Shown: piece by piece, positions 1-12,558 of the stretch
Position numbering within the stretch: position 1 is the first letter of the stretch
Layout of the letters: each line of letters starts with the position of its first letter
Virus genome (UHGV): UHGV-1300782
Strand: one strand, 5' to 3'
Length of the DNA stretch: 12,558 nt
From: a virus
The notes under the pieces: model-generated
Told to the model about the DNA's origin: nothing
The model's input: the letters and a program-made list of their open reading frames with translations, nothing else
The model's database searches: none
Position numbers and translations under genes: made by a program

Positions 1-147
1 GGCGTCCGCTGGGTTATCGTTGGCCACATCGCGAGCTTCTTTGCTGACGAAAGCCCACTTAATGCCTTCCTGTAAGGTGCGGAACTTCCAGCTCATGAAT
101 CCGCATGCAGTAACGCAGTACCAACCGTTGATGATTTTCCACTGCAT
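1..147 (-). CDS. Hypothetical protein, N-terminal 49 codons only (gene runs off the left edge); first gene of the leftward early transcript
   Basis: Minus-strand ATG at 147-145 with GAGGT 8 nt upstream; reverse-complement translation MQWKIINGWYCVTACGFMSWKFRTLQEGIKWAFVSKEARDVANDNPADA stays open to position 1. Lies directly downstream of the PL-like promoter. Absent from the ORF track because it is truncated. No family recognised. Confidence 0.45.
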   Translation of the reverse strand, partial: MQWKIINGWYCVTACGFMSWKFRTLQEGIKWAFVSKEARDVANDNPADA

Positions 148-166
148 AACTTGTTACCTCGGTCTG

Positions 167-243
167 TTACCGTTGAGGTAATAATTATGCTTATTTGGTT
201 TGGTGTCAATAGATATGAGTTAAAAAAATTACCCGTAAGGTAA
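167..243 (-). promoter_or_regulatory. PL-like leftward early promoter bracketed by two operator palindromes
   Basis: Read on the minus strand: -35 TTGACA (plus 204-209), 17-nt spacer, -10 AATTAT (plus 181-186). Perfect palindromes TTACC-GTTGA-GGTAA at 167-181 (abutting the -10, over the start site) and TTACC-CGTAA-GGTAA at 229-243 (20 bp upstream of the -35). Operator centres are 62 bp apart. Confidence 0.6.
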
Positions 244-250
244 TCTATCT

Positions 251-280
251 GGCAATAAAAAAGCCGCCATGAGGCGGCTT
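251..280 (-). terminator. Intrinsic terminator of the repressor gene
   Basis: GC-rich hairpin AAGCCGCC-atga-GGCGGCTT (261-280) followed on the minus strand by TTTTATTGCC (reverse complement of 251-260); lies about 20 nt past the repressor stop codon. No U-tract on the plus strand, so unidirectional. Confidence 0.7.
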
Positions 281-300
281 ACTTGCTGAAAACTATAGTT

Positions 301-885
301 TTATTGTTTGCTTTTTTCGTTCTGGTTGATGACAAATTCAATGTAACTTTCGATCTTTGCTTTCTCGGTTTCGGGTAACAATGCGTAGCGCGAGCGGTCA
401 TAGTTGATGGTCGCAGGGTCGTGCGGGTGAATCAGTAATTCATAGCCGTGACGCCCGAATGCGGATGCCACATTCTCCAGGGTGGAAATGGAAACGCTAA
501 CCTCATTGTTTAACAGGCGGCTGATTGTCACCTGGGCGACGCCGGATGCGCGGTGAAGTTTTCCCTGTGTTGAAAGGTCGCGGCTTTCGCTCATCCAGCG
601 TTCCAGGTTGTGAGCCGCCAGCTGACCAATGTCGCTTGGGCCGACAGGCTGAAAACCTTCCTGAGAAAGCGAGCGATCGATATCAAGCCAGTTACGGGGT
701 TTATTGGCGGCAGCTTCAATTTTTCGCGCAACCTGGTCGCCGATAACCTTCTTGCCAAGAGCCCAGCGGTTTACCAGATTTGCCTGAGTTCCAAGTTTTT
801 CTGCCATCCGCGTCTGAACACCATTGAATTCACGGTCGATCAAGTCGTTGAGATTTTGCCTGCGGACGTCCTGGATACTTTTCAT
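301..885 (-). CDS. Prophage immunity repressor, tandem helix-turn-helix, no recognisable S24 autopeptidase domain
   Basis: 194-codon ORF divergent from the cro-like gene, with operator palindromes on both sides. N-terminal segment QTRMAEKLGTQANLVNRWALGKK and C-terminal segment SGVAQVTISRLLNNEVSVSISTLENVASAFG both read as HTH units. No Ala-Gly cleavage site or Ser/Lys dyad motif seen. Own terminator at 251-280. No SD before the ATG. Confidence 0.7.
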   Translation of the reverse strand: MKSIQDVRRQNLNDLIDREFNGVQTRMAEKLGTQANLVNRWALGKKVIGDQVARKIEAAANKPRNWLDIDRSLSQEGFQPVGPSDIGQLAAHNLERWMSESRDLSTQGKLHRASGVAQVTISRLLNNEVSVSISTLENVASAFGRHGYELLIHPHDPATINYDRSRYALLPETEKAKIESYIEFVINQNEKSKQ

Positions 886-940
886 TTTCTGGAAAATCGC
901 CTCATATATGAATCAGTAGATGATTCAATTTAAAGCAATA

Positions 941-1014
941 TTACCCAACAGGTAAATGCACCTCATAGGTAACTATCCTTGATTTTTGTTACCTTATGGG
1001 TGAATATTTATTAT
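941..1014. promoter_or_regulatory. OR-like operator cluster with candidate rightward promoter
   Basis: Three sites between the divergent genes: TTACC-CAACA-GGTAA (941-955, perfect), GCACC-TCATA-GGTAA (958-972), TTACC-TTATG-GGTGA (989-1003). Candidate rightward promoter -35 TTGTTA (986-991), 17-nt spacer, -10 TATTAT (1009-1014), overlapping the third site. The leftward repressor promoter could not be placed with confidence. Confidence 0.55.
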
Positions 1015-1039
1015 CTGAAATAAATATCAGGCAATAGCT

Positions 1040-1270
1040 ATGAGCGATAACGGACATTTCGATTTCAAAAAGCACTGGCTTGCACTTACTCCGGATGAGC
1101 GTGAAGCCTTCGCACAGGAAGCCGGAACGACGAGTCACTATATCCAGACTCACTTAACAGGTAAGCGCAAAATGCCAGGTAAAGTATTGATGAATGGGCT
1201 TTTTAAAGCCTGTAAAACAAGACAATGGCTGCGCTCAAAAGCAGAACTGGCATACTTCTTCTACTCATGA
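1040..1270 (+). CDS. Cro-like small HTH DNA-binding protein
   Basis: 76-codon ORF divergent from the repressor; HTH-like stretch REAFAQEAGTTSHYIQTHLTGKR. Assigned mainly by position and size; no clear SD upstream. Confidence 0.6.
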   Translation: MSDNGHFDFKKHWLALTPDEREAFAQEAGTTSHYIQTHLTGKRKMPGKVLMNGLFKACKTRQWLRSKAELAYFFYS

Positions 1271-1292
1271 TATCCAGCCACAACCCTCTGTA

Positions 1293-1314
1293 GACCGCCA
1301 TCCGGCGGTCTTTT
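1293..1314 (+). terminator. Intrinsic terminator downstream of cro-like gene (tR1-like position)
   Basis: Hairpin GACCGCC-atcc-GGCGGTC (1293-1310) followed by TTTT (1311-1314), 23 nt after the stop at 1270. The U-tract is short, so termination may be partial. Confidence 0.55.
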
Positions 1315-1325
1315 CATATCTATTC

Positions 1326-1340
1326 GCACCTTAAAGGTAA
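1326..1340. promoter_or_regulatory. Degenerate operator-like site GCACC-TTAAA-GGTAA
   Basis: Shares the GCACC left half-site with the 958-972 site and the exact GGTAA right half with 5-nt spacing; lies just after the terminator and upstream of the replication genes. Confidence 0.3.
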
Positions 1341-1420
1341 CAAAAAACCAAATATGGTTGATCTTTTTTTTGTGTCAGCACAAAATAACCGTAATCCCAA
1401 TACTAATAACAGGGATTACC

Positions 1421-1621
1421 ATGGAAATCATTACACGTATTGATGCCGCAAAGCGCGGACTTAAACGCTACTACACCGGAAAAACATGTAAGCACGGACA
1501 TGACAGTGAACGCTGGGTTTACAACGGACACTGTGTTGAGTGCACCATGGAATCAAACCGTCGTATCAGGGCAGAGATTAAGCAGATCATGATTAATTCC
1601 TCCCCACAACATTCAAGCTGA
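1421..1621 (+). CDS. Small zinc-ribbon protein in the cII position
   Basis: ATG 1421 with GGGA 7 nt upstream; the 1358 start in the ORF track only adds a hydrophobic run. Cys/His pairs CKHGH ... HCVEC suggest a zinc ribbon. Function not recognised. Confidence 0.55.
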   Translation: MEIITRIDAAKRGLKRYYTGKTCKHGHDSERWVYNGHCVECTMESNRRIRAEIKQIMINSSPQHSS

Positions 1622-1636
1622 TAGCGGAGATTAATC

Positions 1637-2452
1637 ATGAGCAGACATGCAACAGATTGGGCCTGGGAGACAGATCCAGGTAGCTCGTCATTAAAGCTCA
1701 TACTGCTCTCGATGGCTGACAGAGCCGATGAATATAACCTCTGCTACCCCAGCATAGAACGCCTCGTTAAAGACACTTGCCTGAATAAAAAAACCGTGCA
1801 GGCCGGGCTTATATCGCTCATGAAAATGGGGCTTATTTCAGATACCGGAGAGAGAAAGGGAGCGACGAAAAGAGTGCGGGTTTTCTCTCTTAATATAACC
1901 AAAAACGGGAACATTAAAGGCAACCGGGAAGGGGGTAATGAACCCGAAAACGGTAATGTTACCGAAAACGGGAATATACCCAAAAACGGGATGTTGAATG
2001 ATCCCAAAAACGGGATGTTGAATGATCCCAAAAACGGGATCCAGAACCAGTCATATAACCAGTCATTTAACCAAGAGAGGGAGAGCAGGACAAAAACCGG
2101 GGATTCTGTTCCTCATGACCCCGGCGCAAACAACGCCGTGATGAATAACTTTGTTCCTCCTGGTGGGCCAGGGCAATTAGGCAAATTTGTCATGCATGAA
2201 CAATGGCAGCCATCAGATGACTTTCTTCGGAAAAGCTCATTGCAGGGGATCTACCTGGACAGTCTGCCAACGGCACAGGAACTTGCAGAGTTCAGAATTT
2301 ACTGGATGGCTGAGGGTAAGGCATACCATCAGGCACAGTGGGAGCAGAAGCTGGCAAGGCGGCTGCAGATTAGCAGACAGAAGCAATCAACATTACCTGA
2401 TAACAACGTTCCGCACTGGAACAGCCCTGAAGCGTGGGAGGATTTCTTGTGA
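1637..2452 (+). CDS. Replication initiator (lambda O-like role), N-terminal winged-helix replication-protein domain, iterons embedded in the coding sequence
   Basis: GGAG 7 nt before ATG 1637. N-terminus LKLILLSMADRADEYNLCYPSIERLVKDTCLNKKTVQAGLISLMKMGLI matches the HTH pattern I associate with phage replication initiators. The central region is low-complexity (PKNGMLNDPKNGMLNDPKNG) because it is encoded by the iterons. Stop overlaps the next gene's start (GTGA). Confidence 0.7.
   Translation: MSRHATDWAWETDPGSSSLKLILLSMADRADEYNLCYPSIERLVKDTCLNKKTVQAGLISLMKMGLISDTGERKGATKRVRVFSLNITKNGNIKGNREGGNEPENGNVTENGNIPKNGMLNDPKNGMLNDPKNGIQNQSYNQSFNQERESRTKTGDSVPHDPGANNAVMNNFVPPGGPGQLGKFVMHEQWQPSDDFLRKSSLQGIYLDSLPTAQELAEFRIYWMAEGKAYHQAQWEQKLARRLQISRQKQSTLPDNNVPHWNSPEAWEDFL
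1898..2041. repeat. Iteron array, probable origin of replication
   Basis: Six copies of CC(A/G)AAAACGG(G/T)A at about 1898, 1943, 1961, 1978, 2002 and 2026. The last three sit in an exact 24-bp tandem CCCAAAAACGGGATGTTGAATGAT (1979-2002, 2003-2026, partial third to 2041). Followed by a short direct repeat CCAGTCAT (2049-2056, 2063-2070). Confidence 0.75.
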
Positions 2453-3234
2453 ACAACGTTTTTACCGCGATACAAAACCGTGACGGAGAAGCCCTTTCTC
2501 GCATGTCAGGTTATGAGCATCAGTACGTCAACAATGACAATGTGGTGAACATGTCAGCAGAGAGGCTTGTTGATGCCCTTTTCAAACAGCTGAAACAACT
2601 GTTTCCGGCGGCAGTGGTAACCAACCTGAAGACGCCAGAGCAGGAAGTTGCTGCAAAACAGCAGTGGATTGCTGCGTTTGCCGAAGGGGGAATACGTACC
2701 CGTGAACAGGTTTCTGCTGGTATGCGCCACGCCCGCGCCAGTGAATCTCCGTTCTGGCCGTCGCCAGGGCAATTCATCAAGTGGTGTAAAGACAGCAAGA
2801 TGGTTCTTGGCGTCACCATTGACGATGTGATGGCGGAGTTTCACCGGTACAGCAAGGAAAAAAGTTTATATCCTGGTGGTCCCGAAAGATTCCCGTGGCG
2901 GCATCCGGTTATGTACTGGGTCGTATGTGATACACGCCGTGCAATGTATCAGCGCCAGCTTAGCGAGATTGAGGTTGAGAAACACGCGCGCAGGCTGCTC
3001 GATGATTGGGCGAAAAAGGTGGCTTCCGGACAGCAGATACCCGATCCGGTGATCAGCATACAGGCAAAGCCAGAACCCATGAGTACACCTCCGGACACAG
3101 GGAGAGACGTTTACCATCCACCAGGGCGAAGTTTCGGGTGCATGCCTAACGCCGCCACCCTGGGGGGAATAACACCGGCGCAGTGGCTGATGGAGGAATA
3201 CAGGCGGGGAAAGGCGGCAGGATTTATCAAGTAA
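2449..3234 (+). CDS. Lambda P-like replication protein (helicase loader)
   Basis: GGGAGGA (2436-2442) 6 nt before GTG 2449, overlapping the upstream stop; the 2434 start in the ORF track is the same frame. Stretch QQWIAAFAEGGIRTREQVSAGMRHARASESPFWPSPGQFIKWC closely resembles, as I recall it, the lambda P region containing PSPGQF. Confidence 0.65.
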   Translation: MNNVFTAIQNRDGEALSRMSGYEHQYVNNDNVVNMSAERLVDALFKQLKQLFPAAVVTNLKTPEQEVAAKQQWIAAFAEGGIRTREQVSAGMRHARASESPFWPSPGQFIKWCKDSKMVLGVTIDDVMAEFHRYSKEKSLYPGGPERFPWRHPVMYWVVCDTRRAMYQRQLSEIEVEKHARRLLDDWAKKVASGQQIPDPVISIQAKPEPMSTPPDTGRDVYHPPGRSFGCMPNAATLGGITPAQWLMEEYRRGKAAGFIK

Positions 3235-3239
3235 TACCA

Positions 3240-3259
3240 GCGCGATGGCGCATTTTTTT
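3240..3259 (+). terminator. Weak intrinsic terminator after the P-like gene
   Basis: Short stem GCGC-gatg-GCGC (3240-3251) followed by a T7 run (3253-3259). The stem is only 4 bp, so strength is uncertain. Confidence 0.4.
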
Positions 3260-3270
3260 ACGTCTCGATG

Positions 3271-3348
3271 ATTACCTTCTAGGTAATAAAATATTCTAAA
3301 ATCTATTGATTTCGTGTCTTATGTGGTTTTTAATTACCTCAGAGGTAA
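3271..3348 (+). promoter_or_regulatory. Second promoter-operator cassette, rightward, in front of the accessory gene block
   Basis: ATTACC-TTCTA-GGTAAT (3271-3287), -35 TTGATT (3306-3311), 17-nt spacer, -10 TTTAAT (3329-3334), then TTACC-TCAGA-GGTAA (3334-3348) abutting the -10. Operator centres are 62 bp apart, as at PL. The right half-site GAGGT also serves as the SD for the ATG at 3352. Confidence 0.6.
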
Positions 3349-3351
3349 ATC

Positions 3352-3696
3352 ATGAGAAAACAGATACAGGCTCTTGGTCGACTCAAAACAGGCCAGATGA
3401 ACAAAACAGAATCTGCGTATTGCCAGCACCTTGAGCAGCGTAAACGTGCAGGGGAAATCGCCTGGTATCGATTCGAGGGTATCAAGCTGCGGTTAGCTGA
3501 CAACACGTTCTATACGCCCGATTTTGCTGTGATGCTCGCCACCGGCGAGATGGAACTGCACGAAGTGAAAGGTTTCTGGACCGACGACGCCAGAGTGAAA
3601 ACCAAAGTCGCCGCAGATCAGTATCCGTTCCGAATCATCGGGGTAACGGTTAAACCAAAGAAAGCAGGTGGTGGCTGGAACATCGAAGAGTTCTGA
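3352..3696 (+). CDS. DUF1064-like protein with a PD-(D/E)xK nuclease-type motif
   Basis: 114 codons; GAGGT 4 nt before the ATG. Segment YTPDFAVMLATGEMELHEVKG fits PD ... E-x-K spacing. The DUF1064 family assignment is from memory. Confidence 0.6.
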   Translation: MRKQIQALGRLKTGQMNKTESAYCQHLEQRKRAGEIAWYRFEGIKLRLADNTFYTPDFAVMLATGEMELHEVKGFWTDDARVKTKVAADQYPFRIIGVTVKPKKAGGGWNIEEF

Positions 3697-3757
3697 ATCG
3701 ACGATCTTTTTAGTTATCAATGTAATCAATAAGTTATGTGGATAAGCGAGGGTAAAG

Positions 3758-4318
3758 ATGGAAAGTAATATCAAAGGGTTAGTTTACGCCGGGCATGAGA
3801 TGGCTTCGGAACTGAAAGCAGAATGTGGTGCCGTTGATATGCGTAGTGTGGCAAAGCTGATCAGCGATTTGGCAACGCAACTGGAAGTGCAACTGGTGCG
3901 TGCTAATGCGATGGCGTCGGAGAATGAGGCGTTGAAGTCGAACCTGATTTACTGGGGCGGCGAAGATTCAGGGGCTGTCAGAAGTCCGCTTGATTACGCC
4001 CGTGCAGCCGGGCTGGAATCTGGAGAGGAGTTTGAGATGCAAGTGGCAGCCAGAATGCCGAACCTGACTTATCGCGTTGTGTCGAATTCCCGATTCAGAA
4101 CAACAATAGAACTGGTTGACGGATCATTGCCGGAAACCCCAGCCACCGATGCTTTTCTGGCTGAAGTACGGGCGCAGGCGTTTAATGACCTTTGCTCGGC
4201 GTTCGTTAAACACGCGAATCTCGCGGGAATGGATGATGGTGAGCTAGTGAGTCTTAAATATGCGACGGACGCCCTGCTGCATTGTGCGGAACAGCTTCGC
4301 AAAGGAGGCAACCAGTGA
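3758..4318 (+). CDS. Hypothetical protein (186 aa)
   Basis: GAGGGT 4 nt before ATG 3758; stop overlaps the next gene's start (GTGA at 4315-4318). No family recognised. Confidence 0.6.
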   Translation: MESNIKGLVYAGHEMASELKAECGAVDMRSVAKLISDLATQLEVQLVRANAMASENEALKSNLIYWGGEDSGAVRSPLDYARAAGLESGEEFEMQVAARMPNLTYRVVSNSRFRTTIELVDGSLPETPATDAFLAEVRAQAFNDLCSAFVKHANLAGMDDGELVSLKYATDALLHCAEQLRKGGNQ

Positions 4319-4860
4319 GTGTAACGGTTGAAAAGATTGATGTGTTGTCATTCGTTATAACCGGTGCAGAGCGACTAGATCCGGTTCGAGTGATGATTGA
4401 AAACTACGAACCTGGTAAGGGAAGAATCACCATCACCAGCTACGGAAAAGCGTGGACTGCGGCTTGGTTTGCTATGGGCGGTGATGATGTGCAGACGTTC
4501 ATTAAGCGAGTCAGCAACGACTATCTAATCGACAATTTCGACCCTCAACTGCTAAGCACGGTCGACGATGACAACGATGCAAATCTGCTTTTCGTGAAGT
4601 CAGAAATCATAAAGTTACGAAGAGAGAGAGAAATCGACGCTGTACAGGCTCGCGAAATGTGGGACGAGGCGGAAAACGCCGATGACGTAAAAGAAAGCTG
4701 CTGCTGTTTCGGCGTCGGTAACAAACTACTGAATCTCTTTGGTGATGATCCGTGGTATGCCAACTGGCCAACGATACCAAACCCGAAATACCAGTATCTG
4801 GAACGCGTACTTAATGCAGTGAGAGACGGTCTTAAGCAAATAGAGAAGGTGGAACCATGA
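4315..4860 (+). CDS. Hypothetical protein (181 aa) with a Cys triplet (ESCCCFGVG)
   Basis: AGGAGG (4303-4308) 6 nt before GTG 4315; the TTG at 4282 in the ORF track is the same frame but overlaps the upstream gene. Stop overlaps the next ATG (ATGA at 4857-4860). Confidence 0.6.
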   Translation: MSVTVEKIDVLSFVITGAERLDPVRVMIENYEPGKGRITITSYGKAWTAAWFAMGGDDVQTFIKRVSNDYLIDNFDPQLLSTVDDDNDANLLFVKSEIIKLRREREIDAVQAREMWDEAENADDVKESCCCFGVGNKLLNLFGDDPWYANWPTIPNPKYQYLERVLNAVRDGLKQIEKVEP

Positions 4861-5156
4861 CTGTATGTCTTATTGATAAACGTCGACGTGGGCAACAAAT
4901 ACCATCTGTTGAAATGCCGAATCACACATGGTTTTGCGTACTTGATATCGATGGTATGGATACGTTGGTTGACACTCGTCATTACTGCGATACCGCAACA
5001 GCTACTCCGGCGAAAGCAAAGAAAATGGCTGCTCTGATAGAAAACTGGACTCCACCTGATGGTTGGTGCAATGGGAATGATCGAGATTGGCACGAAAAAA
5101 TGAAGGGCTATATCTGCGATTTTTTACGTAAATGCAACGGCTTCAGGGTGATGTGA
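4857..5156 (+). CDS. Hypothetical protein (99 aa), Cys/Trp-rich
   Basis: GAAGGTGG 4-5 nt before ATG 4857, translationally coupled to the upstream gene; stop TGA 5154-5156 is followed one base later by the next ATG. Confidence 0.6.
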   Translation: MTVCLIDKRRRGQQIPSVEMPNHTWFCVLDIDGMDTLVDTRHYCDTATATPAKAKKMAALIENWTPPDGWCNGNDRDWHEKMKGYICDFLRKCNGFRVM

Positions 5157-5157
5157 C

Positions 5158-5442
5158 ATGAGCAAGATTGACTATCAGGCACTGCGTGAAAAGGCAGAGA
5201 AAGCAACGTGTGGTGTGTGGTCGCTCGAATATGGAGAGGGCCGATTTGATGGTGATGATGCACTAATTCATCGCGAGGCTGCTGGGTATATTCCCATTTG
5301 CAGAATTGAAGGAGCGCATCCAGAAAGCGGTTTCGATGAAGATTTCCAAATGGATTCGAAAGAATGCATTGACGTAATTCGTGAAGAAGTAAAGCGATGG
5401 AATGATTCCCGCGCCGCTGGTATTCGCATCAAAGGAGAGTGA
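5158..5442 (+). CDS. Ead/Ea22-like family protein (tentative)
   Basis: AGGGTGA 6 nt before ATG 5158. N-terminus ALREKAEKATCGVW resembles the LRELAEKATPGPW-type motif I associate with Ead/Ea22-like prophage proteins. Confidence 0.5.
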   Translation: MSKIDYQALREKAEKATCGVWSLEYGEGRFDGDDALIHREAAGYIPICRIEGAHPESGFDEDFQMDSKECIDVIREEVKRWNDSRAAGIRIKGE

Positions 5443-5443
5443 G

Positions 5444-5635
5444 ATGAACGGACAAATATCAATTGTTCGACCAGGAGCATGTGACGATCGCGAAATACGA
5501 ATGATTATTCGTCTGGCGAGGGGGAAAACAATAACTGCTCTCATTACTCCAGAAAATCTCGCATTAGCATTAACCGGAAAGTCAGACCTGCCAGTAGAGC
5601 TAAAGCTGCGAAATGTTGAGATTAAGGTGAAATAG
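5444..5635 (+). CDS. Hypothetical small protein (63 aa)
   Basis: AAAGGAG 6 nt before ATG 5444, one base after the upstream stop; the 5402 start in the ORF track would overlap the previous gene. Confidence 0.55.
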   Translation: MNGQISIVRPGACDDREIRMIIRLARGKTITALITPENLALALTGKSDLPVELKLRNVEIKVK

Positions 5636-5637
5636 TT

Positions 5638-6390
5638 ATGAATACTCTTACCAAAGAATGGTTACAGAACACGATTACCGGAATTGAGTCGATAATAGAC
5701 GATAAATCGTTTGTATGTAGTGAAATAGCATTCGAAATAGGTGTGGTTAACAACATACTTACCGCATTTAAAATTGCACTGGCATCGCTGGCAGCAGTAT
5801 CGGATGAACGGGCAGCCTATGAATTATTTATGGAGAAGCGTTTCGGGGAATCTGTAGATCGCCGCAGGGCAAAAAATGGTGATAGAGAATACATGGCATG
5901 GGATATGGCGCTTGGCTGGATTATCTGGTGTCACCGCGCCGCCATGCTTCAGGGAGGCCAACCTGTAAACCAAACTTACAACTTGCCAGAATTAATCGAA
6001 GGCATGGAAGTTTCCATTGATGTAAGCACTTGTGATGCTGATTTAGGTAATCGCTATTTCGGCACCGTCACCGAGGCGTTAGAACTTGATACTGCCAAGA
6101 ATGGTTACATCCTCCTGGTTCAGGACGCAGAGCCAAACTTCGATGTAAATGGCAACTCTCCGGCAACTCCGGATAGTTGGATAAGCTGTAGTGAGCGAAT
6201 GCCGGAAGACACCAAAATGTTACTGGCATTTAGTCAAGGTGAAATCGTGGCCGCATATTGGAACTGGGTTGTAAATCCAATTGATTACAAAAAATACAGA
6301 GCTTTCACGTATTTATCAGGAAATATCCTAGATGACGTAACCCACTGGATGCCGCTGCCAGAACCGCCGCAGGAGGTTAACCGTGGCTAA
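5638..6390 (+). CDS. DUF551-like protein (tentative, C-terminal WMPLPEPP motif)
   Basis: AAGGTGA 7 nt before ATG 5638. C-terminus SERMPEDT ... THWMPLPEPP resembles the conserved tail of DUF551 prophage proteins as I remember it. Confidence 0.55.
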   Translation: MNTLTKEWLQNTITGIESIIDDKSFVCSEIAFEIGVVNNILTAFKIALASLAAVSDERAAYELFMEKRFGESVDRRRAKNGDREYMAWDMALGWIIWCHRAAMLQGGQPVNQTYNLPELIEGMEVSIDVSTCDADLGNRYFGTVTEALELDTAKNGYILLVQDAEPNFDVNGNSPATPDSWISCSERMPEDTKMLLAFSQGEIVAAYWNWVVNPIDYKKYRAFTYLSGNILDDVTHWMPLPEPPQEVNRG

Positions 6391-6664
6391 CCTGCAACTT
6401 GCCGTCAAAGGTGAATACTTCGATGCCATGATTCGCGGAGATAAAACGGAAGAGTATCGCCTGTGTAATGACTACTGGGAAAAGCGAATTATGTTCCGGG
6501 AATATGACCGCCTGATTATCACAAAGGGATATCCGAAGCGTGACGATTCCAGCCGCAGAATTGACGTTCCGTATGGCGGCTATGAAATCAAGACAATCAC
6601 ACATCCGCACTTCGGCGATAAACCGGTAAAGGTATACGCGATAAAGGTAAATATTGATGGCTAA
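6383..6664 (+). CDS. ASCH/PUA-like small protein (tentative)
   Basis: AGGAGG (6371-6376) 6 nt before GTG 6383, overlapping the upstream stop. N-terminus LAVKGEYFDAMIRGDKTEEYRL matches the ASCH-type pattern (I..I.....GKKT.E.R). Confidence 0.5.
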   Translation: MANLQLAVKGEYFDAMIRGDKTEEYRLCNDYWEKRIMFREYDRLIITKGYPKRDDSSRRIDVPYGGYEIKTITHPHFGDKPVKVYAIKVNIDG

Positions 6665-6995
6665 ATCAGCAGCAGAGCGCAAAGCCGCTCAGAGAGCCAG
6701 ACAAGCTGCATCTGGTGTACGTAAGCTGGAGATTGTGCTTGATGCTCAGGAAATTGAAATGCTGGAGCGTAACTGTGCCACACGTCGCCCCGGGCGTGCG
6801 CCTTACGAATTTGGTGAGTATATAGCGTTACTGATCCGCCAGGATGATGCACGCGTGCGCGGGCGTATAAAATCGATCAGCAGAAAACGTTGCGGTAAGT
6901 GCGGCGAGAGAGTTCCTGTGAATTCATGCCCGTGTAATGGTGACTCGCAATGCTGGGTAACCAAAGGCTGGCATGAAACGAAATTAATAGTGTGA
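6657..6995 (+). CDS. Basic protein with a C-terminal Cys cluster (CGKCGERVPVNSCPC), candidate zinc-binding regulator
   Basis: AAGGT 8 nt before ATG 6657; basic helical N-terminus AERKAAQRARQAASGVRKLEIVL; Cys cluster C-x2-C-x9-C-x-C. Last gene before the terminase operon. Function inferred from composition only. Confidence 0.5.
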   Translation: MAKSAAERKAAQRARQAASGVRKLEIVLDAQEIEMLERNCATRRPGRAPYEFGEYIALLIRQDDARVRGRIKSISRKRCGKCGERVPVNSCPCNGDSQCWVTKGWHETKLIV

Positions 6996-7003
6996 CATGT
7001 CAC
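6991..7003. repeat. Palindrome TGTGACATGTCAC, copy 1
   Basis: The 13-mer recurs exactly at 9442-9454; the 12-bp core GTGACATGTCAC is a perfect palindrome. It spans the stop of the 6657-6995 gene. Confidence 0.7.
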
Positions 7004-7012
7004 GAAGGTGTT

Positions 7013-7225
7013 ATGCCAAAAATACGCTACGACCTTGAAGATATGAGAGATAACTCAGCAAATTTTCCGAAAGAGGTTAAATTTCTCATGCATAAGTATG
7101 GTTGCGCCAGGAGGGATATAGTTATCGACAGTCAGCACCCTTGCGGCGAGGATGTAATTTTCATTCGCGGTAAATGGGAAGGGTATCTTGACGAGAGTTT
7201 TTACGATGAATTTGATGGACTTTGA
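7013..7225 (+). CDS. Hypothetical small protein (70 aa)
   Basis: ATG 7013 preceded by GAAGGTG; the ORF track's GTG at 6992 is in frame and cannot be excluded. Stop at 7223-7225 is followed by a terminator. Confidence 0.5.
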   Translation: MPKIRYDLEDMRDNSANFPKEVKFLMHKYGCARRDIVIDSQHPCGEDVIFIRGKWEGYLDESFYDEFDGL

Positions 7226-7230
7226 ATACT

Positions 7231-7257
7231 GCCGCCAACTATGGCGGCTTTATTTTG
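7231..7257 (+). terminator. Intrinsic terminator between accessory block and terminase genes
   Basis: Hairpin GCCGCCA-acta-TGGCGGC (7231-7248) followed by TTTATTTTG (7249-7257). Confidence 0.7.
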
Positions 7258-7260
7258 CAT

Positions 7261-7292
7261 GGTACTATTACCACAACGGTAACTATTACCAC
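7261..7292. repeat. Direct repeat GGTA(A)CTATTACCAC x2 upstream of terS
   Basis: Exact 10-mer CTATTACCAC at 7265-7274 and 7283-7292. Each copy forms an inverted-order palindrome of the operator half-sites (GGTA-CTAT-TACC at 7261-7272; GGTAA-CTA-TTACC at 7278-7290). Confidence 0.65.
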
Positions 7293-7302
7293 GGTGGTTA
7301 TG

Positions 7303-7896
7303 ATGCCTGCTGAACCTAAAACCTATAAACGCAAATCAACGCAATTTAAGCCACTAACAGCAATGCAGGAGGCTTATTGCCAGTCATACATCAAAACGCC
7401 TGAAAACCAGACTCAGGCAGCGATTAACGCAGGATTCTCCCCAAATACAGCGGCAGTTAAAGCCAGTGTCATGATGCGCGATGAACGCATTCAAAAACGG
7501 ATTGCCGAGCTGATGGAAGAGCGCAACAAACGAATGCGCGTCAGTGCTGATTACGTTCTCATGCGCCTGGTGGAGATCGACCAGATGGACGTGATCGACA
7601 TCCTCAACGACGATGGGAGCCTTAAGCCAATCCGCGAGTGGCCGAAAATCTGGCGCACTACGCTTAGCGGCTTTGATCTGTCATCGACCATCATGAACAT
7701 GAACGAGGATTCGATAGAGACAATCCTCAAAAAAATTAAATGGCCTGACAAGGTGAAGAACCTCGAACTGATTGGTAAGCACGTCGACGTCAACGCATTC
7801 AAAGAACGCCTGGATGTTAATGTGAATGTGACAATTGCTGATCGCATAGCAGCAGCCAGGAAGCGACTCAAAGAACGTCAGGATGGTAATCAGTGA
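7303..7896 (+). CDS. terS: Terminase small subunit (Terminase_2-type)
   Basis: Segment LTAMQEAYCQSYIKTPENQTQAAINAGFSPNTAAVKASVMMRDERIQKRIAELM matches the small-terminase pattern (LT..QE.FC.EY ... QAAI.AGYS). Start placed at ATG 7303 (or 7300) after GGTGG; the TTG 7222 extension in the ORF track reads through the terminator and repeats. Stop overlaps the terL start (GTGA). Confidence 0.7.
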   Translation: MPAEPKTYKRKSTQFKPLTAMQEAYCQSYIKTPENQTQAAINAGFSPNTAAVKASVMMRDERIQKRIAELMEERNKRMRVSADYVLMRLVEIDQMDVIDILNDDGSLKPIREWPKIWRTTLSGFDLSSTIMNMNEDSIETILKKIKWPDKVKNLELIGKHVDVNAFKERLDVNVNVTIADRIAAARKRLKERQDGNQ

Positions 7897-9368
7897 CAGA
7901 TACAGCGTTATCTCCTGAAGAGCAGTTGATCGAGGATATTGCAGGGTTCACTCACGATCCGCTTGGCTATGCTCTCTATGCGTTCCCGTGGGGGGAAGAG
8001 GGGACTGAACTGGCACATGCTACCGGCCCACGTCAATGGCAGGCTGATGCGTTCCGAGAGATACGTGATCACCTGCAGAATCCAGAGACGCGCTATCAGC
8101 CGCTTATGCTGGCACGCGCTTCTGGTCACGGTATTGGTAAATCCGCATTTATCTCAATGCTGATCAACTGGGGCATGTCCACTTGCGAGGATTGTAAGGT
8201 CGTGGTGACCGCCAACACCGACAACCAGCTACGAACGAAGACCTGGCCGGAAATTATCAAGTGGTCAAACCTTGCTATCACGAAAGACTGGTTTACCTGT
8301 ACCGCTACCGCGATGTACAGCAATGACCCTGGGCACGACAAGCGGTGGCGAGCTGACGCAATCCCCTGGTCTGAGCACAACACTGAGGCATTCGCCGGAC
8401 TACACAACGAGCGCAAACGCATCATCGTGGTATTCGATGAAGCGTCGAATATTGCCGATCTTGTGTGGGAGGTAGCAGAGGGTGCGCTGACGGACGAAGA
8501 CACCGAAATCATCTGGGTGGCGTTCGGGAACCCGACGCGTAACACCGGGCGTTTCCGTGAATGTTTCCGCAAGTACAAACACCGCTGGAAGTGTGCGCAG
8601 ATTGACAGCCGGACGGTGGAAGGCACTAACAAACAGCAGTTGCAGAAATGGGTTGATGACTACGGGGAAGACAGCGACTTCGTTAAAATCCGTGTGCGCG
8701 GCATATTCCCTGATGCATCTGAATTGCAGTTTATCCCTACCGGTCTTACTGATGAGGCAATGAAACGGGTGGTAACCGCTGCGCAGGTTGCACATGCTCC
8801 GGTGATAATCGGCGTTGACCCGGCATACTCAGGCGTTGATGACGCGGTGATATACCTGCGGCAGGGGCTGCACAGTAAGGTGCTGTGGACTGGCAACAAG
8901 ACTACTGACGATCTGATTATGGCGAAGCGTATCGCTGACTTTGAAGACCAGTACCAGGCTGACGCAGTGTTCATCGACTTCGGTTACGGAACTGGTCTGA
9001 AGTCAATCGGTGACGGCTGGGGTCGTACATGGCAACTTGTTCCGTTCGGTGGCGCGTCTACTGACCCGCAGATGCTCAATAAGCGCGGGGAGATGTTCAA
9101 CTCATGCAAGACATGGCTGAGGCTGGGCGGCATGCTGGATGACCAGGAAACAGCGGACGACCTGTCGGCGGCAGAGTACAAAGTTCGAGTGGACGGTAAA
9201 ATCGTTATCGAACCGAAGGAAGATATCAAGGAGCGGCTTGGGCGCTCGCCGGGTAAAGGCGATGCGCTACTGCTGACGTTTGCTTTCCCTGTGTCGAAGC
9301 GTCTGCGAATTCCCGGGCAGCAGAACCAGCAAGGCAAGGCCATCACAGATTACGATCCCTATGATTAA
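7893..9368 (+). CDS. terL: Terminase large subunit
   Basis: 491 codons; AGGATGG 6 nt before GTG 7893. Walker A-like ARASGHGIGKSAF, Walker B-like IIVVFDEAS, acidic nuclease-type motif VIIGVDPAYSGVDDAV. Size and position after terS fit. Confidence 0.85.
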   Translation: MTDTALSPEEQLIEDIAGFTHDPLGYALYAFPWGEEGTELAHATGPRQWQADAFREIRDHLQNPETRYQPLMLARASGHGIGKSAFISMLINWGMSTCEDCKVVVTANTDNQLRTKTWPEIIKWSNLAITKDWFTCTATAMYSNDPGHDKRWRADAIPWSEHNTEAFAGLHNERKRIIVVFDEASNIADLVWEVAEGALTDEDTEIIWVAFGNPTRNTGRFRECFRKYKHRWKCAQIDSRTVEGTNKQQLQKWVDDYGEDSDFVKIRVRGIFPDASELQFIPTGLTDEAMKRVVTAAQVAHAPVIIGVDPAYSGVDDAVIYLRQGLHSKVLWTGNKTTDDLIMAKRIADFEDQYQADAVFIDFGYGTGLKSIGDGWGRTWQLVPFGGASTDPQMLNKRGEMFNSCKTWLRLGGMLDDQETADDLSAAEYKVRVDGKIVIEPKEDIKERLGRSPGKGDALLLTFAFPVSKRLRIPGQQNQQGKAITDYDPYD

Positions 9369-9418
9369 TCCGCTGGTGGGGATAATGTCGTTGATATCCT
9401 CTGATGAGGATAAAACAA

Positions 9419-9445
9419 AGCCAGCTCATCGGCTGGCTGTTTGTG
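9419..9445. terminator. Bidirectional terminator between convergent terL and the reverse-strand gene
   Basis: Hairpin AGCCAGC-tcatcg-GCTGGCT (9419-9438) with TGTTTGTG downstream on the plus strand and an A-run upstream (T-rich on the minus strand). Confidence 0.5.
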
Positions 9446-9455
9446 ACATGTCACA
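9442..9455. repeat. Palindrome TGTGACATGTCACA, copy 2
   Basis: Perfect 14-bp palindrome; the 13-mer is identical to 6991-7003. Sits between the terL stop and the reverse-strand gene. Confidence 0.7.
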
Positions 9456-9458
9456 GAG

Positions 9459-9866
9459 CTAGAAAATAATTTCATCAAATGCAGCATTTATTGCCTTTGC
9501 TTCGCTAATGGCGCCTTGTTTATCGACAATAGCTTTTTTACCAAGCACCTCGGCAAGGCACTGTAGCTTCATGTTGTATAAGTGTTCGCTCATGTAATCA
9601 TTATCACTTTTTGCTTTAGCGCAAACAGAGCGAGAAATATCAAACACATCGCCTTTTTCCATTTCAGAACGTTGTGCTGTTATCCAGTCATGGAACGTAA
9701 CGCTAGTACCATGGTCTTCTCTAAGAGTTAACCCGGTCAGCCCCTCACTCTGAATTACTTCGTAATGCATTTCATTACCAGCAAAAACGCCATAAAAAAT
9801 GCAGTCTTCAGCCTGAACGATACGAGAATATTTTAATGGCCATTCATTTAGATACTTAGCCAACAT
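9459..9866 (-). CDS. Hypothetical protein (135 aa), reverse-oriented AT-rich insert gene (moron candidate)
   Basis: Minus-strand ORF. Start placed at ATG 9866-9864 (MLAKYLNEWPLKY...) because the longer TTG-initiated version (9929) translates the upstream terminator hairpin. No good SD. My hand count over 9461-9640 gives about 37-42% GC against about 48% in a terL sample (8401-8460). No predicted membrane segment by eye; no family recognised. Confidence 0.5.
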   Translation of the reverse strand: MLAKYLNEWPLKYSRIVQAEDCIFYGVFAGNEMHYEVIQSEGLTGLTLREDHGTSVTFHDWITAQRSEMEKGDVFDISRSVCAKAKSDNDYMSEHLYNMKLQCLAEVLGKKAIVDKQGAISEAKAINAAFDEIIF

Positions 9867-9891
9867 ATCAATTGTCTTGATAATCTCACCT

Positions 9892-9916
9892 AAAAAAAAT
9901 GCCCGGCGAACCGGGC
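9892..9916 (-). terminator. Strong intrinsic terminator immediately upstream of the reverse-strand gene
   Basis: Minus strand reads GCCCGG-TTCG-CCGGGC-A-TTTTTTTT (plus 9916 down to 9892): 6-bp GC stem, UUCG tetraloop, U8 tract. Ends about 25 nt before the ATG at 9866. Confidence 0.75.
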
Positions 9917-9993
9917 GAACTGGAAGCAATGAGTTATGCCTTCCGTGGCTGTACTGGTTTACAGCATGAAGTCATCGCAATGGCGTCCTGCTG

Positions 9994-10036
9994 TAAAAAG
10001 GGCGGTGATAGTCCTTCAAGGGAAACCATCACCGCC
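9994..10036 (-). terminator. Candidate terminator of the tRNA
   Basis: On the minus strand a 9-bp stem GGCGGTGAT / ATCACCGCC (plus 10036-10028 and 10009-10001) around an 18-nt loop, followed by C-TTTTT-A; about 44 nt after the tRNA 3' end. Confidence 0.45.
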
Positions 10037-10080
10037 AAGCCCCCTGGAACTTCTGGCATCACGGTCCTTAGGCGTGATTC

Positions 10081-10157
10081 TGGCGTGGCATGCAGGATTC
10101 GAACCTGCGACCAACCGCTTAGAAGGCGGTTGCTCTGTCCAGCTGAGCTAATGCCAC
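10081..10157 (-). tRNA. tRNA-Arg (anticodon UCU)
   Basis: The reverse complement folds by hand into a 77-nt cloverleaf: acceptor GTGGCAT/ATGCCAC, D-stem GCTC/GAGC, anticodon stem ACCGC/GCGGT with loop CTTCTAA (anticodon TCT), variable loop TGGTC, T-arm GCAGG-TTCGAAT-CCTGC, discriminator G, encoded CCA. Confidence 0.85.
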
Positions 10158-10479
10158 AACGCTGAGAGCACTTAGCCTGTTAAGGCGCCACACTTTGTCG
10201 CGGCTCCATAAATGCTCTCATCGTTGTACCCTCGTCTCTTCCGAGGTGTCACACCGAATCGCCTGGATGGTGAATCCCCGTGCGCGGAATAAAACCGCTC
10301 GACTTGCACATTCCGGCTACCTGGTTCGTTTGCCCGAGCAAGGGAGGGTGCCCCTTAAACGTATCCAGACCGCTATCGGCGCATGTGCCATACGCCGTAC
10401 TGCTCAAAATAAAAGCTCACTCCACCTGTTCAATTTAACGACAAGCCAGTCAGGTTAGTAACCGGAATGAACTCTTTGG

Positions 10480-10523
10480 TTACCTGAAAGGTAATAATTC
10501 GTGCGTTAAATGTCAACTGTCTA
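10480..10523 (-). promoter_or_regulatory. Third promoter-operator cassette, leftward, feeding the tRNA/insert unit
   Basis: Minus strand reads TAGACA-G-TTGACA ... AATTAT-TACC-TTTCA-GGTAAC. Operator TTACC-N5-GGTAA at plus 10480-10494 abuts a -10-like AATTAT (plus 10494-10499) exactly as at PL. -35 candidates are TAGACA (plus 10518-10523, 18-nt spacer) or TTGACA (plus 10511-10516, spacer too short). A lone GGTAA half-site sits at 10552-10556, where a second operator 62 bp away would lie. Confidence 0.45.
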
Positions 10524-10584
10524 CGATAAATAAATCATATGTGGTTAAATTGGTAATAATTTAATTGCGTACGGAGTCATTGAT

Positions 10585-10791
10585 ATGTGCATGGGTAGCT
10601 CACCATCAGTGCCTGCAACACCAGAAGTTCAGGCAGCACCACAGGAGCAGGATGCCGCCGTTGTTGATGCCCGCGACGAAGAAACTCGTCGCCGTCGCGC
10701 TGCTGCTGGTCGTAGTTCTACGCTGCTTACCGGTTCTCAGGGCGACACATCAACCGCTAATACCAGCGGTAAAACGCTGCTTGGTCAGTAA
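10585..10791 (+). CDS. Hypothetical small protein (68 aa), low-complexity and Arg-rich, upstream of portal
   Basis: GGAG (10573-10576) 8 nt before ATG 10585. Codon choice (CGT/CGC, GGT, CTG, ACC) looks like expressed enterobacterial genes. The overlapping TTG-initiated frame at 10565 has no SD and was not called. Confidence 0.55.
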   Translation: MCMGSSPSVPATPEVQAAPQEQDAAVVDARDEETRRRRAAAGRSSTLLTGSQGDTSTANTSGKTLLGQ

Positions 10792-10805
10792 CCGGAGTCA
10801 TTGAA

Positions 10806-12470
10806 ATGGCGGAAACAACTAAAGAGCGATTGAACAAACAGTTCGCACAACTTGAAAGCGAGCGTCAGTCGTTCGAGCCGCACTGGCGCGAGTTGAGTGA
10901 TTACATCAACCCGCGTGGTTCCCGCTTTCTGACTTCTGAGGTCAACCGTAACGATCGACGCAATACACGCATTATTGATTCGACCGGGACTATGGCGGCG
11001 CGCACTCTCGCCAGCGGCATGATGTCAGGCATCACAAGCCCCGCGCGTCCGTGGTTTCGCCTGGCTACGCCAGATCCTGAAATGATGGATTATGGCCCTG
11101 TTAAGTTGTGGCTTGAGGCGGTGCAGAACCGCATGAACGATATGTTCAATAAGTCGAATCTCTATCAGTCGCTGCCGCAGTTATACGGAAGCCTCGGCAC
11201 ATACAGCACTGGTGCAATGGCAGTGCTGGAGGATGACGAGGACATCATTCGCACAATGCCATTCCCGATAGGAAGTTACTACCTGGCTAACTCACCTCGT
11301 GGCAGTGTGGACACCTGTTTTCGCAAGTTCTCTATGACTGTTCGTCAGCTTGTTCAGGAGTTCGGGCTAAATAACGTCAGCGAATCCGTAAAAAGCATGT
11401 GGGAAAGCGGCACCTACGAGAAGTGGATTGAAGTGATGCATTCGGTTTACCCGAACATTGACCGCGATACATCGAAGCTGGATAGCAAGAACAAGCCATT
11501 CAAATCGGTTTATTACGAGGTTGGTGGCGATAACGACAAGTTGTTGCGTGAGTCCGGATTCGATGAGTTTCCAATTATGGCTCCGCGCTGGGAAGTTAAC
11601 GGCGAAGATGTTTATGGATCATCATGCCCGGGTATGCTGGCGCTTGGACCTGTTAAGGCATTGCAGCTTCTCCAGAAGCGCAAGTCGCAGTTGATTGATA
11701 AAGCCACCAATCCGCCGATGGTTGCTCCGACTTCCCTCAAGAATCAGCGCGCCTCCCTTCTTCCTGGCGACATCACGTATATCGATCAGATTACTGGTCA
11801 TGATGGTTTCAGGCCTGCTTATCTGGTTAACCCCAGTACAGCAGATTTGGTGGCAGACATTCAGGACACTCGTCAAATCATTAACAGCGCCTACTTTGTC
11901 GATCTGTTCATGATGTTGCAGAACATCAATACCCGCTCGATGCCTGTTGAAGCGGTGATCGAAATGAAAGAAGAAAAACTTCTGATGTTGGGGCCGGTTC
12001 TGGAGCGTCTGAACGACGAATGTCTTAATCCTCTCATTGACCGCGCTTTCTCGATGATGGTGCGTAAAAACATGCTGCCGCCACCGCCTGACGCGATGGA
12101 AGGTATGCCCCTGAAGGTCGAATACATTTCCGTCATGGCTCAGGCGCAGAAGTCTATCGGCCTGTCCAGTCTGGCGTCTACGGTCAACTTCATTGGTCAA
12201 CTTGCGCAAGCGAAACCAGAAGCTCTCGACAAACTCAACGTTGATCAGGCGATCGATGCATTCGCTGATATGTCCGGAGTGTCTCCAACCGTCATTGTTC
12301 CGCAGGAACAGGTTGAGCAGGCTCGCCAGCAACGGGCACAGCAACAACAGCAGCAACAAATGATGGAGATGGGGATGGCGGCGGCACAGGGTGCCAAGAC
12401 GCTAAGCGAAGCTAAAACTTCGGATCCGAGTGTTTTGTCAGCTATGGCGAATGCAGTTAGTGGTCGCTGA
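10806..12470 (+). CDS. Portal (head-to-tail connector) protein, T7-type family
   Basis: 554 codons; GGAG 9 nt before ATG 10806. N-terminal pattern (ERQSFEPHWRELSDYINP ... ARPWFRLATP) and the Gln/Met-rich C-terminus (QQQQQQQMMEMGMAAAQGA) parallel the T7 gp8 connector as I recall it. Confidence 0.8.
   Translation: MAETTKERLNKQFAQLESERQSFEPHWRELSDYINPRGSRFLTSEVNRNDRRNTRIIDSTGTMAARTLASGMMSGITSPARPWFRLATPDPEMMDYGPVKLWLEAVQNRMNDMFNKSNLYQSLPQLYGSLGTYSTGAMAVLEDDEDIIRTMPFPIGSYYLANSPRGSVDTCFRKFSMTVRQLVQEFGLNNVSESVKSMWESGTYEKWIEVMHSVYPNIDRDTSKLDSKNKPFKSVYYEVGGDNDKLLRESGFDEFPIMAPRWEVNGEDVYGSSCPGMLALGPVKALQLLQKRKSQLIDKATNPPMVAPTSLKNQRASLLPGDITYIDQITGHDGFRPAYLVNPSTADLVADIQDTRQIINSAYFVDLFMMLQNINTRSMPVEAVIEMKEEKLLMLGPVLERLNDECLNPLIDRAFSMMVRKNMLPPPPDAMEGMPLKVEYISVMAQAQKSIGLSSLASTVNFIGQLAQAKPEALDKLNVDQAIDAFADMSGVSPTVIVPQEQVEQARQQRAQQQQQQQMMEMGMAAAQGAKTLSEAKTSDPSVLSAMANAVSGR
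12262..12356 (+). repeat. Direct repeat, copy 1 (inside portal coding sequence)
   Basis: 95 bp, 94/95 identical to 12464-12558 (offset 202 bp); the single mismatch is C at 12301 versus T at 12503. Confidence 0.85.
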
Positions 12471-12558
12471 TATGTCCGGAGTGTCTCCAACCGTCATTGT
12501 TCTGCAGGAACAGGTTGAGCAGGCTCGCCAGCAACGGGCACAGCAACAACAGCAGCAA
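12464..12558 (+). repeat. Direct repeat, copy 2 (spans the portal stop codon, truncated by window end)
   Basis: Copy of 12262-12356. It contains the portal stop TGA (12468-12470) and an ATG at 12472 that opens a frame re-encoding MSGVSPTVIVLQEQVEQARQQRAQQQQQQ to the window edge. Confidence 0.85.

Follow-up and report, generated by a model that had tools for sequence, protein, structure and literature searches.

The apparent duplication of the portal gene tail in the window (the whole 12,558-nt stretch that was analysed, from the UHGV virus genome UHGV-1300782) is most probably a chimeric or low-coverage contig tip and not a feature of the phage genome. The source would be an ordinary Uetakevirus-type (phiV10/epsilon15-like) prophage of Escherichia coli, with bases 13–12465 representing its true genome and the last 93 bases a displaced copy of sequence located 202 nt upstream. 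The premature stop codon, the shortened portal of 554 aa and the frame that opens at the next ATG would then be by-products of the assembly rather than genes.

Gene content of the window

The window comprises the early/replication module and the terminase–portal module of a Uetakevirus-type (phiV10/epsilon15-like) temperate E. coli phage. The gene order of Uetakevirus runs from the small terminase subunit through the large terminase subunit, (a tRNA-Arg), a small open reading frame (ORF), the portal protein, the Bbp19-family protein and the protease to the major capsid protein. The window agrees with this order up to the portal gene and lacks everything past 12465, the remainder of the order being seen in the relatives.

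The portal protein belongs to the Head-tail_con family (PF12236, the T7 gp8 / epsilon15 gp4 type; 623 bits, with a gathering cutoff of 27; E = 3.6e-187). The match spans residues 7–496 of the 554 residues and profile positions 2–488 of 489, so that residues 497–559 of the full-length protein lie outside the model. The portal protein as read in the window is identical to that of the MINF_2E prophage at 552 of 554 residues, and its gene ends with GGT CGC TGA.

Three further features are situated upstream of the portal gene. The large terminase subunit (7893–9368, 491 aa) has no Pfam match at E ≤ 1e-3; in all relatives its annotation is that of a PacB-like terminase. Between the terminase and portal genes, the minus strand carries a tRNA-Arg with the anticodon TCT (10081–10157); it is annotated at the equivalent place in the E. 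coli prophage relatives and not in the phiV10 record. Just upstream of the portal gene, an ORF of 68 aa (10585–10791) begins with MCMGSSPS, which resembles a lipoprotein signal with a Cys residue. This ORF is kept in all relatives (epsilon15 gp3-like) and belongs to no Pfam family.

Structure of the repeat at the 3' end of the portal gene

The window ends in a 95-nt direct repeat, with 12262–12356 (copy 1) recurring at 12464–12558 (copy 2) at a spacing of 202 nt. The two copies differ at one position only, which is C at 12301 in copy 1 and T at 12503 in copy 2. The initial annotation had described a repeat of this length, spacing and identity, with copy 1 encoding portal residues 486–517, and both statements are confirmed. 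It was also right that the offset of 202 is not a multiple of three and that the TGA of the portal gene is created by the displaced copy. Copy 2 starts 4 nt ahead of the first base of the stop codon, not 6 nt as had been given. An ATG does re-open a reading frame after the stop codon, as had been noted, with a single base (T at 12471) and not two bases intervening. This frame corresponds to portal codons 489 onward with one change, and the sequence ahead of the ATG at 12472 contains no good Shine–Dalgarno motif.

Comparison with the relatives places the true breakpoint at 12465|12466, after which the window reads GCTGATATGTCC, copying 12264 onward; the back-jump junction appears in the window as 12465|GCTGATATG. 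The displaced part is therefore 93 nt long rather than 95 nt, as the first two matching bases (TC) constitute microhomology at the junction. Copy 2 breaks off at the window edge after 93 of 202 nt. The repeat ends at the poly-Gln tract because the window stops there, 55 nt past the mismatch, and for no reason residing in the sequence. The expected number of exact repeated 55-mers arising by chance in 12.5 kb is about 6e-26. The coordinates of these features are collected in Table 1.

Table 1 Features of the two window ends and of the portal gene.
Feature	Position	Strand	Remarks
5' tip, GGCGTCCGCTGG	1–12	+	Non-collinear with every relative; matches start at base 13
Portal (head-to-tail connector) ORF as read in the window	10806–12470	+	554 aa, ending ...SGR-stop; PF12236 Head-tail_con
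Copy 1, authentic sequence and source of the displaced copy	12262–12356	+	Portal residues 486–517; single in all relatives, with C at 12301
TC microhomology (2 nt)	12464–12465	+	Last bases collinear with the relatives; the repeat has no further leftward extension
Displaced 93-nt back-copy of 12264–12356	12466–12558	+	Stands where the relatives have AGGGTGGGCAATCACAATGACAG; makes the premature TGA at 12468–12470
Open frame MSGVSPTVIVLQEQVEQ / MSGVSPTVIVLQEQVEQARQQRAQQQQQQ	12472–12558	+	Continues to the window edge; the displaced copy read again from portal Met-489; not a supported gene
Single mismatch, private T	12503	+	Would be Pro499Leu in the portal frame; C in all sisters
Terminal 55-mer	12504–12558	+	Identical to 12302–12356; the longest window suffix recurring elsewhere is 55 nt

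Comparison with relatives and near-identical sisters

Searches with the portal gene produced matches to 21 phage records and to 529 of 5,426 complete E. coli genomes. Among the matches inspected or listed, every record is collinear with the window only to 12465, and the alignments to phiV10, the MINF_2E prophage and Phi05_2388B likewise diverge past this base. Beyond it the relatives read AGGGTGGGCAATCACAATGA, which gives a portal protein of 559 aa ending in ...SGQGGQSQ. The portal stop codon overlaps, in the sequence ATGA, the start of a gene of 98–100 aa belonging to the Bbp19 family (PF25181), which is followed by the protease and major capsid genes. The Bbp19-family gene, with the sequence MTDYEDDQLKEEN..., shows no similarity to the portal tail. 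The 559-aa portal protein is present in phiV10, the MINF_2E prophage and the 19AR0656 prophage, as well as in all of the loci with an exact terminase match that reach the region, and in these loci (nine of nine) the Bbp19-family gene follows it. Comparison with relatives had been proposed at the outset as a check, and their portal protein is indeed longer (559 versus 554 aa), with the repeat absent.

Near-identical sisters were located by exact-protein look-ups. The closest, ACBYWY010000001.1 (GCA_054405975.1), is approximately 99.97% identical to the window and spans positions 13–12465, with three single-nucleotide differences (1415, 9879 and 9892) and one indel of a 24-nt iteron unit. The Logan contig SRR36470062_158 spans 5160–12465 with two single-nucleotide differences. 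Six sister assemblies are 100% identical to the window over the portal bases 10806–12465, and all six have AGGGTGGG after 12465, C at 12301 and a single occurrence of the 55-mer. The divergence of the window from its sisters amounts to 2.4e-4 per site.

Two independent contigs from induced phages of this group, both labelled 'UNVERIFIED' (KM389253.1 and KM389436.1), end 80 and 116 nt past the portal 3' end, respectively. Several assemblies therefore break near the 3' boundary of the portal gene.

Searches for the junction and the private base

The junction is private to the window sequence. A 30-mer spanning it is absent from the viral_contigs, genome_contigs and metagenome_contigs collections. 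An 80-mer spanning it matches 517 of the 5,426 complete E. coli genomes searched; the matches listed consist of two pieces of a single-copy gene, and none among them is a one-piece match. An exact-protein look-up of the truncated 554-aa portal in the gene-position index found nothing on record. The T at 12503 is present in none of 520 E. coli records, none of which is ≥99% identical to 12466–12558, and T as a natural allele, which could have pointed to a strain mixture, was rejected on these records.

Geometry of the window end

The distance from the mismatch to the window end is exactly 55 nt. When k was scanned from 15 to 129, only k = 55 placed the end of the first re-entered k-mer on the last base of the window, and at this k the window contains one repeated k-mer, the terminal one. 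A de Bruijn graph simulated at k = 55 consists of the edges 1–12356 and 12302–12465, a junction edge (12411–12558) and an exit edge. The window is the path along the first three of these edges, stopping where the loop closes. A chimeric read and a true duplication yield the same simulated topology.

SPAdes selects k values of 21–55 automatically and leaves overlaps of length k at contig ends (PMC5481147), and an instance of a contig-end overlap of 55 bp, in which identical ends served to call a contig circular, has been described (PMC8483715). A literature search for a general description of contig tips of this kind returned examples of circularization only. Given the k = 55 geometry and these k-length overlaps, we read the window end as the end of a whole contig and not as an arbitrary cut. 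As in the circular overlaps left by SPAdes and other de Bruijn assemblers, the last k bases of the window are already a vertex in its own path; the re-entered vertex is, however, internal, lying 202 nt upstream, and the junction leading to it is found in no relative. The path through the window is thus rho-shaped rather than a circle. An overlap of a circular contig and terminal redundancy were both rejected: the k-mer recurs inside the contig instead of at its start, and the terminase/pac region is distant. The window has two marks of a loop closure or chimeric tip, a terminal k-mer that recurs internally at a standard assembler k, with no other repeated k-mer, and a junction that is absent from close relatives and from other data sets.

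Current versions of SPAdes normally traverse a simple loop that has an exit. That the window nevertheless ends on the junction edge points to a true exit that had been lost or clipped.

The 5' end of the window

The other end of the window is non-collinear with its relatives as well. The matches to 561 of 561 E. coli records begin at base 13, before which the sister ACBYWY010000001.1 reads ...ccctcccatatctc. The first 12 bases occur neither in the 19AR0656 prophage segment nor in the whole PAS61 genome, and they have no second occurrence in the window, so that a local displaced copy like that at the 3' tip was rejected as their origin. None of the three contig collections (viral, genome and metagenome) contains a 30-mer across the boundary of the 5' tip, and to our knowledge the 12-mer matches no standard adapter sequence. 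Bases 1–12 are probably a second dirty contig tip. The ends of the contig therefore appear to be unclean in general and were probably thinly covered.

Proposed origin of the displaced segment

The assembly artefact that the initial annotation listed among its possibilities is the best-supported reading, in the form of a loop closure at k = 55 at a contig tip. Its suggested location over the CAA/CAG-rich tract does not hold, as the sequence at the breakpoints 12465 and 12264 lacks low complexity. Slippage on this low-complexity tract was accordingly rejected as the source of the artefact, both breakpoints lying outside it.

The window would be a contig assembled from short reads with a de Bruijn assembler at k = 55, the largest default value of SPAdes/metaSPAdes. 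Its last 93 bases would be a graph edge that departs from the true path at a point 15 nt short of the authentic portal stop codon and returns to a site 202 nt upstream, and the contig would halt at the first base at which an already used 55-mer is re-entered. The edge was most likely backed by one or a few chimeric reads, generated in vitro by template switching or ligation. These reads would have been located at a low-coverage end of the contig and would also have carried a base error, the T at 12503. At least one read must contain the junction, because a microhomology of 2 nt cannot yield a k-mer misjoin.

The tip shares several properties with the chimeric reads that arise during multiple displacement amplification (MDA) or library preparation, namely a non-collinear join at a few nucleotides of microhomology, confinement to one data set, a base error and a position at a contig tip. 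A local back-jump of 202 nt on the same strand represents just one class of chimera, and a chimeric origin is what we infer from these properties. Assemblers usually remove chimeric edges supported by a single read in high-coverage isolate assemblies, so that the artefact requires local coverage to have been low, as we assume. Counting against the artefact, we estimate that a random chimera would land at so benign a spot approximately 10–15% of the time.

The mismatch between the copies bears on the age of the copy. For a duplication no older than the split from the sisters, the probability of at least one difference within 93 nt is ≤2.2%; for reads with an error rate of 0.1–1% it is 9–60%. 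One mismatch is found in the 93 nt, where a genuine duplication would be expected to show ≤0.022 at 2.4e-4 per site.

Alternative explanations

The main alternative is a real, very recent and private tandem duplication of the 202 bp from 12264 to 12465, produced by slippage or template switching at TC and either fixed or sub-clonal. We regard this as unlikely, although several observations are compatible with it. The k = 55 graph of such a duplication has edges and a contig end identical to those of the artefact, and the assembler, unable to traverse the loop, would stop inside copy 2. The head-to-tail geometry, the 2-nt microhomology and the short 202-nt unit are those of a tandem duplication by replication slippage, of which a back-jump on the same strand with microhomology is the classic in vivo footprint. 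The presence of the junction in at least one read, as required above, is also what a duplication predicts. Furthermore, the breakpoint is functionally benign, as it falls past the Pfam domain (residues 7–496), with 15 nt left to the natural stop codon, and costs only the last six residues. The phage would therefore probably be viable, and a real event of this kind would be tolerated by selection. A coherent set of products is predicted, comprising a portal protein of 554 aa (...SGR-stop), a 71-aa ORF from Met-489 to the authentic stop codon and an intact Bbp19-family gene 202 nt further on.

Against a real duplication, the arrangement is missing from the six sisters whose portal sequence is 100% identical and from the other records inspected or listed among approximately 520 genomes and 21 phages, with the junction found nowhere else. 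Its copies should be identical (probability of a mismatch ≤2.2%), yet copy 2 carries a private base. The opposite contig tip is non-collinear too, and SPAdes would normally have resolved a simple loop with an exit. Two observations thus speak against the recent tandem duplication put forward in the initial annotation, namely the mismatch within a copy that would have to be very young and the non-collinearity of the 5' tip as well, and we give it a low probability.

A portal repeat of another kind is present in Escherichia phage vB_EcoP_PAS61 (OQ921333.1), in which a 528-nt stretch of the portal coding sequence is duplicated in tandem and in frame at about 16163–17218. The two copies have zero mismatches, and the portal protein is annotated as 735 aa versus 559 aa in all relatives. 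MIRA and 2x150 reads were used for the assembly, and the paper is silent on the duplication (PMC11522302). The repeat resembles that of the window in being a direct tandem repeat in the portal gene of a phage of the same genus and in being shared by no other relative. It differs in affecting the N-terminal half of the gene (query bases 227–756), in being in frame and perfect, and in lying well inside a genome deposited as 'complete'. Either a true duplication or an untrimmed circularization overlap could account for it. It illustrates a fresh duplication, or such an overlap, as a repeat with no mismatches, in contrast to the copy in the window. A propensity of the family for portal duplication was set aside as an explanation: the PAS61 repeat, which has another position, keeps the reading frame, shows no mismatches and stems from another assembler, is a possible parallel rather than evidence.

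Much less probable is that the window is an arbitrary cut of a longer, finished sequence that holds the full duplication, in which case its end would carry no information on the assembly. Such a cut would need to lie within the 202-nt copy 2 and exactly 55 nt past the sole mismatch, at a place that coincides with a loop closure at k = 55 alone, and no searched collection contains the junction.

That the next gene of the family genuinely begins with a portal-tail-like segment, with the ATG at 12472 as a real and conserved start, is refuted: its only support is that the frame starting at 12472 stays open up to the window edge, and the arrangement occurs in no relative, all of which have the unrelated PF25181 gene at the ATGA overlap after a 559-aa portal.

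Consequences for annotation

The finding matters mainly for quality control. Annotation should not include the 554-aa portal or the frame starting at 12472, neither should be treated as a gene variant, and both tips (1–12 and 12466–12558) should be trimmed ahead of comparative use. The 3' tip also provides a diagnostic that can be applied to sequence alone: where the last k bases of a contig repeat an internal k-mer, with k a standard assembler value and with an imperfection of the repeat immediately ahead of these bases, the apparent duplication is a graph loop and needs support from reads before it is interpreted biologically.

If the event were true, it would amount to a private tandem duplication of an ordinary kind, with little wider consequence. 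It would also be a snapshot of the birth of a gene fragment at a capsid-assembly locus, in the form of an out-of-frame 202-bp duplication in a live Uetakevirus prophage that shortens the portal protein by six residues and places a separately translated 71-aa peptide upstream of Bbp19; we consider this outcome improbable.

Other variable sites

Two of the three interior single-nucleotide differences from the closest sister, 9879 and 9892 (the third being 1415), lie at the minus-strand gene 9459–9881, and all sisters covering these positions show both differences relative to the window. The two sites are 13 nt apart and lie, on the minus strand, directly past a GC hairpin and a T-run (GCCCGGTTCGCCGGGC-T7/8). 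One of the changes extends the T-run, and the other turns the ATG of the 140-aa gene into ATC, with the next in-frame ATG five codons downstream. Either true knock-down mutations or sequence-specific errors in the reads could explain these changes.

An array of iteron-like direct repeats of 18–24 nt with the core CCCAAAAACGGGA is located at 1891–2043, inside the ORF 1637–2452 that encodes a DnaT-like/HTH_36 replication initiator. The window has one 24-nt unit more (1979–2002) than the closest sister, and Logan contigs assembled at k = 31 break at this array. Versions of the initiator with 263, 271 and 279 aa are present among the relatives, and the iteron copy number therefore varies naturally.
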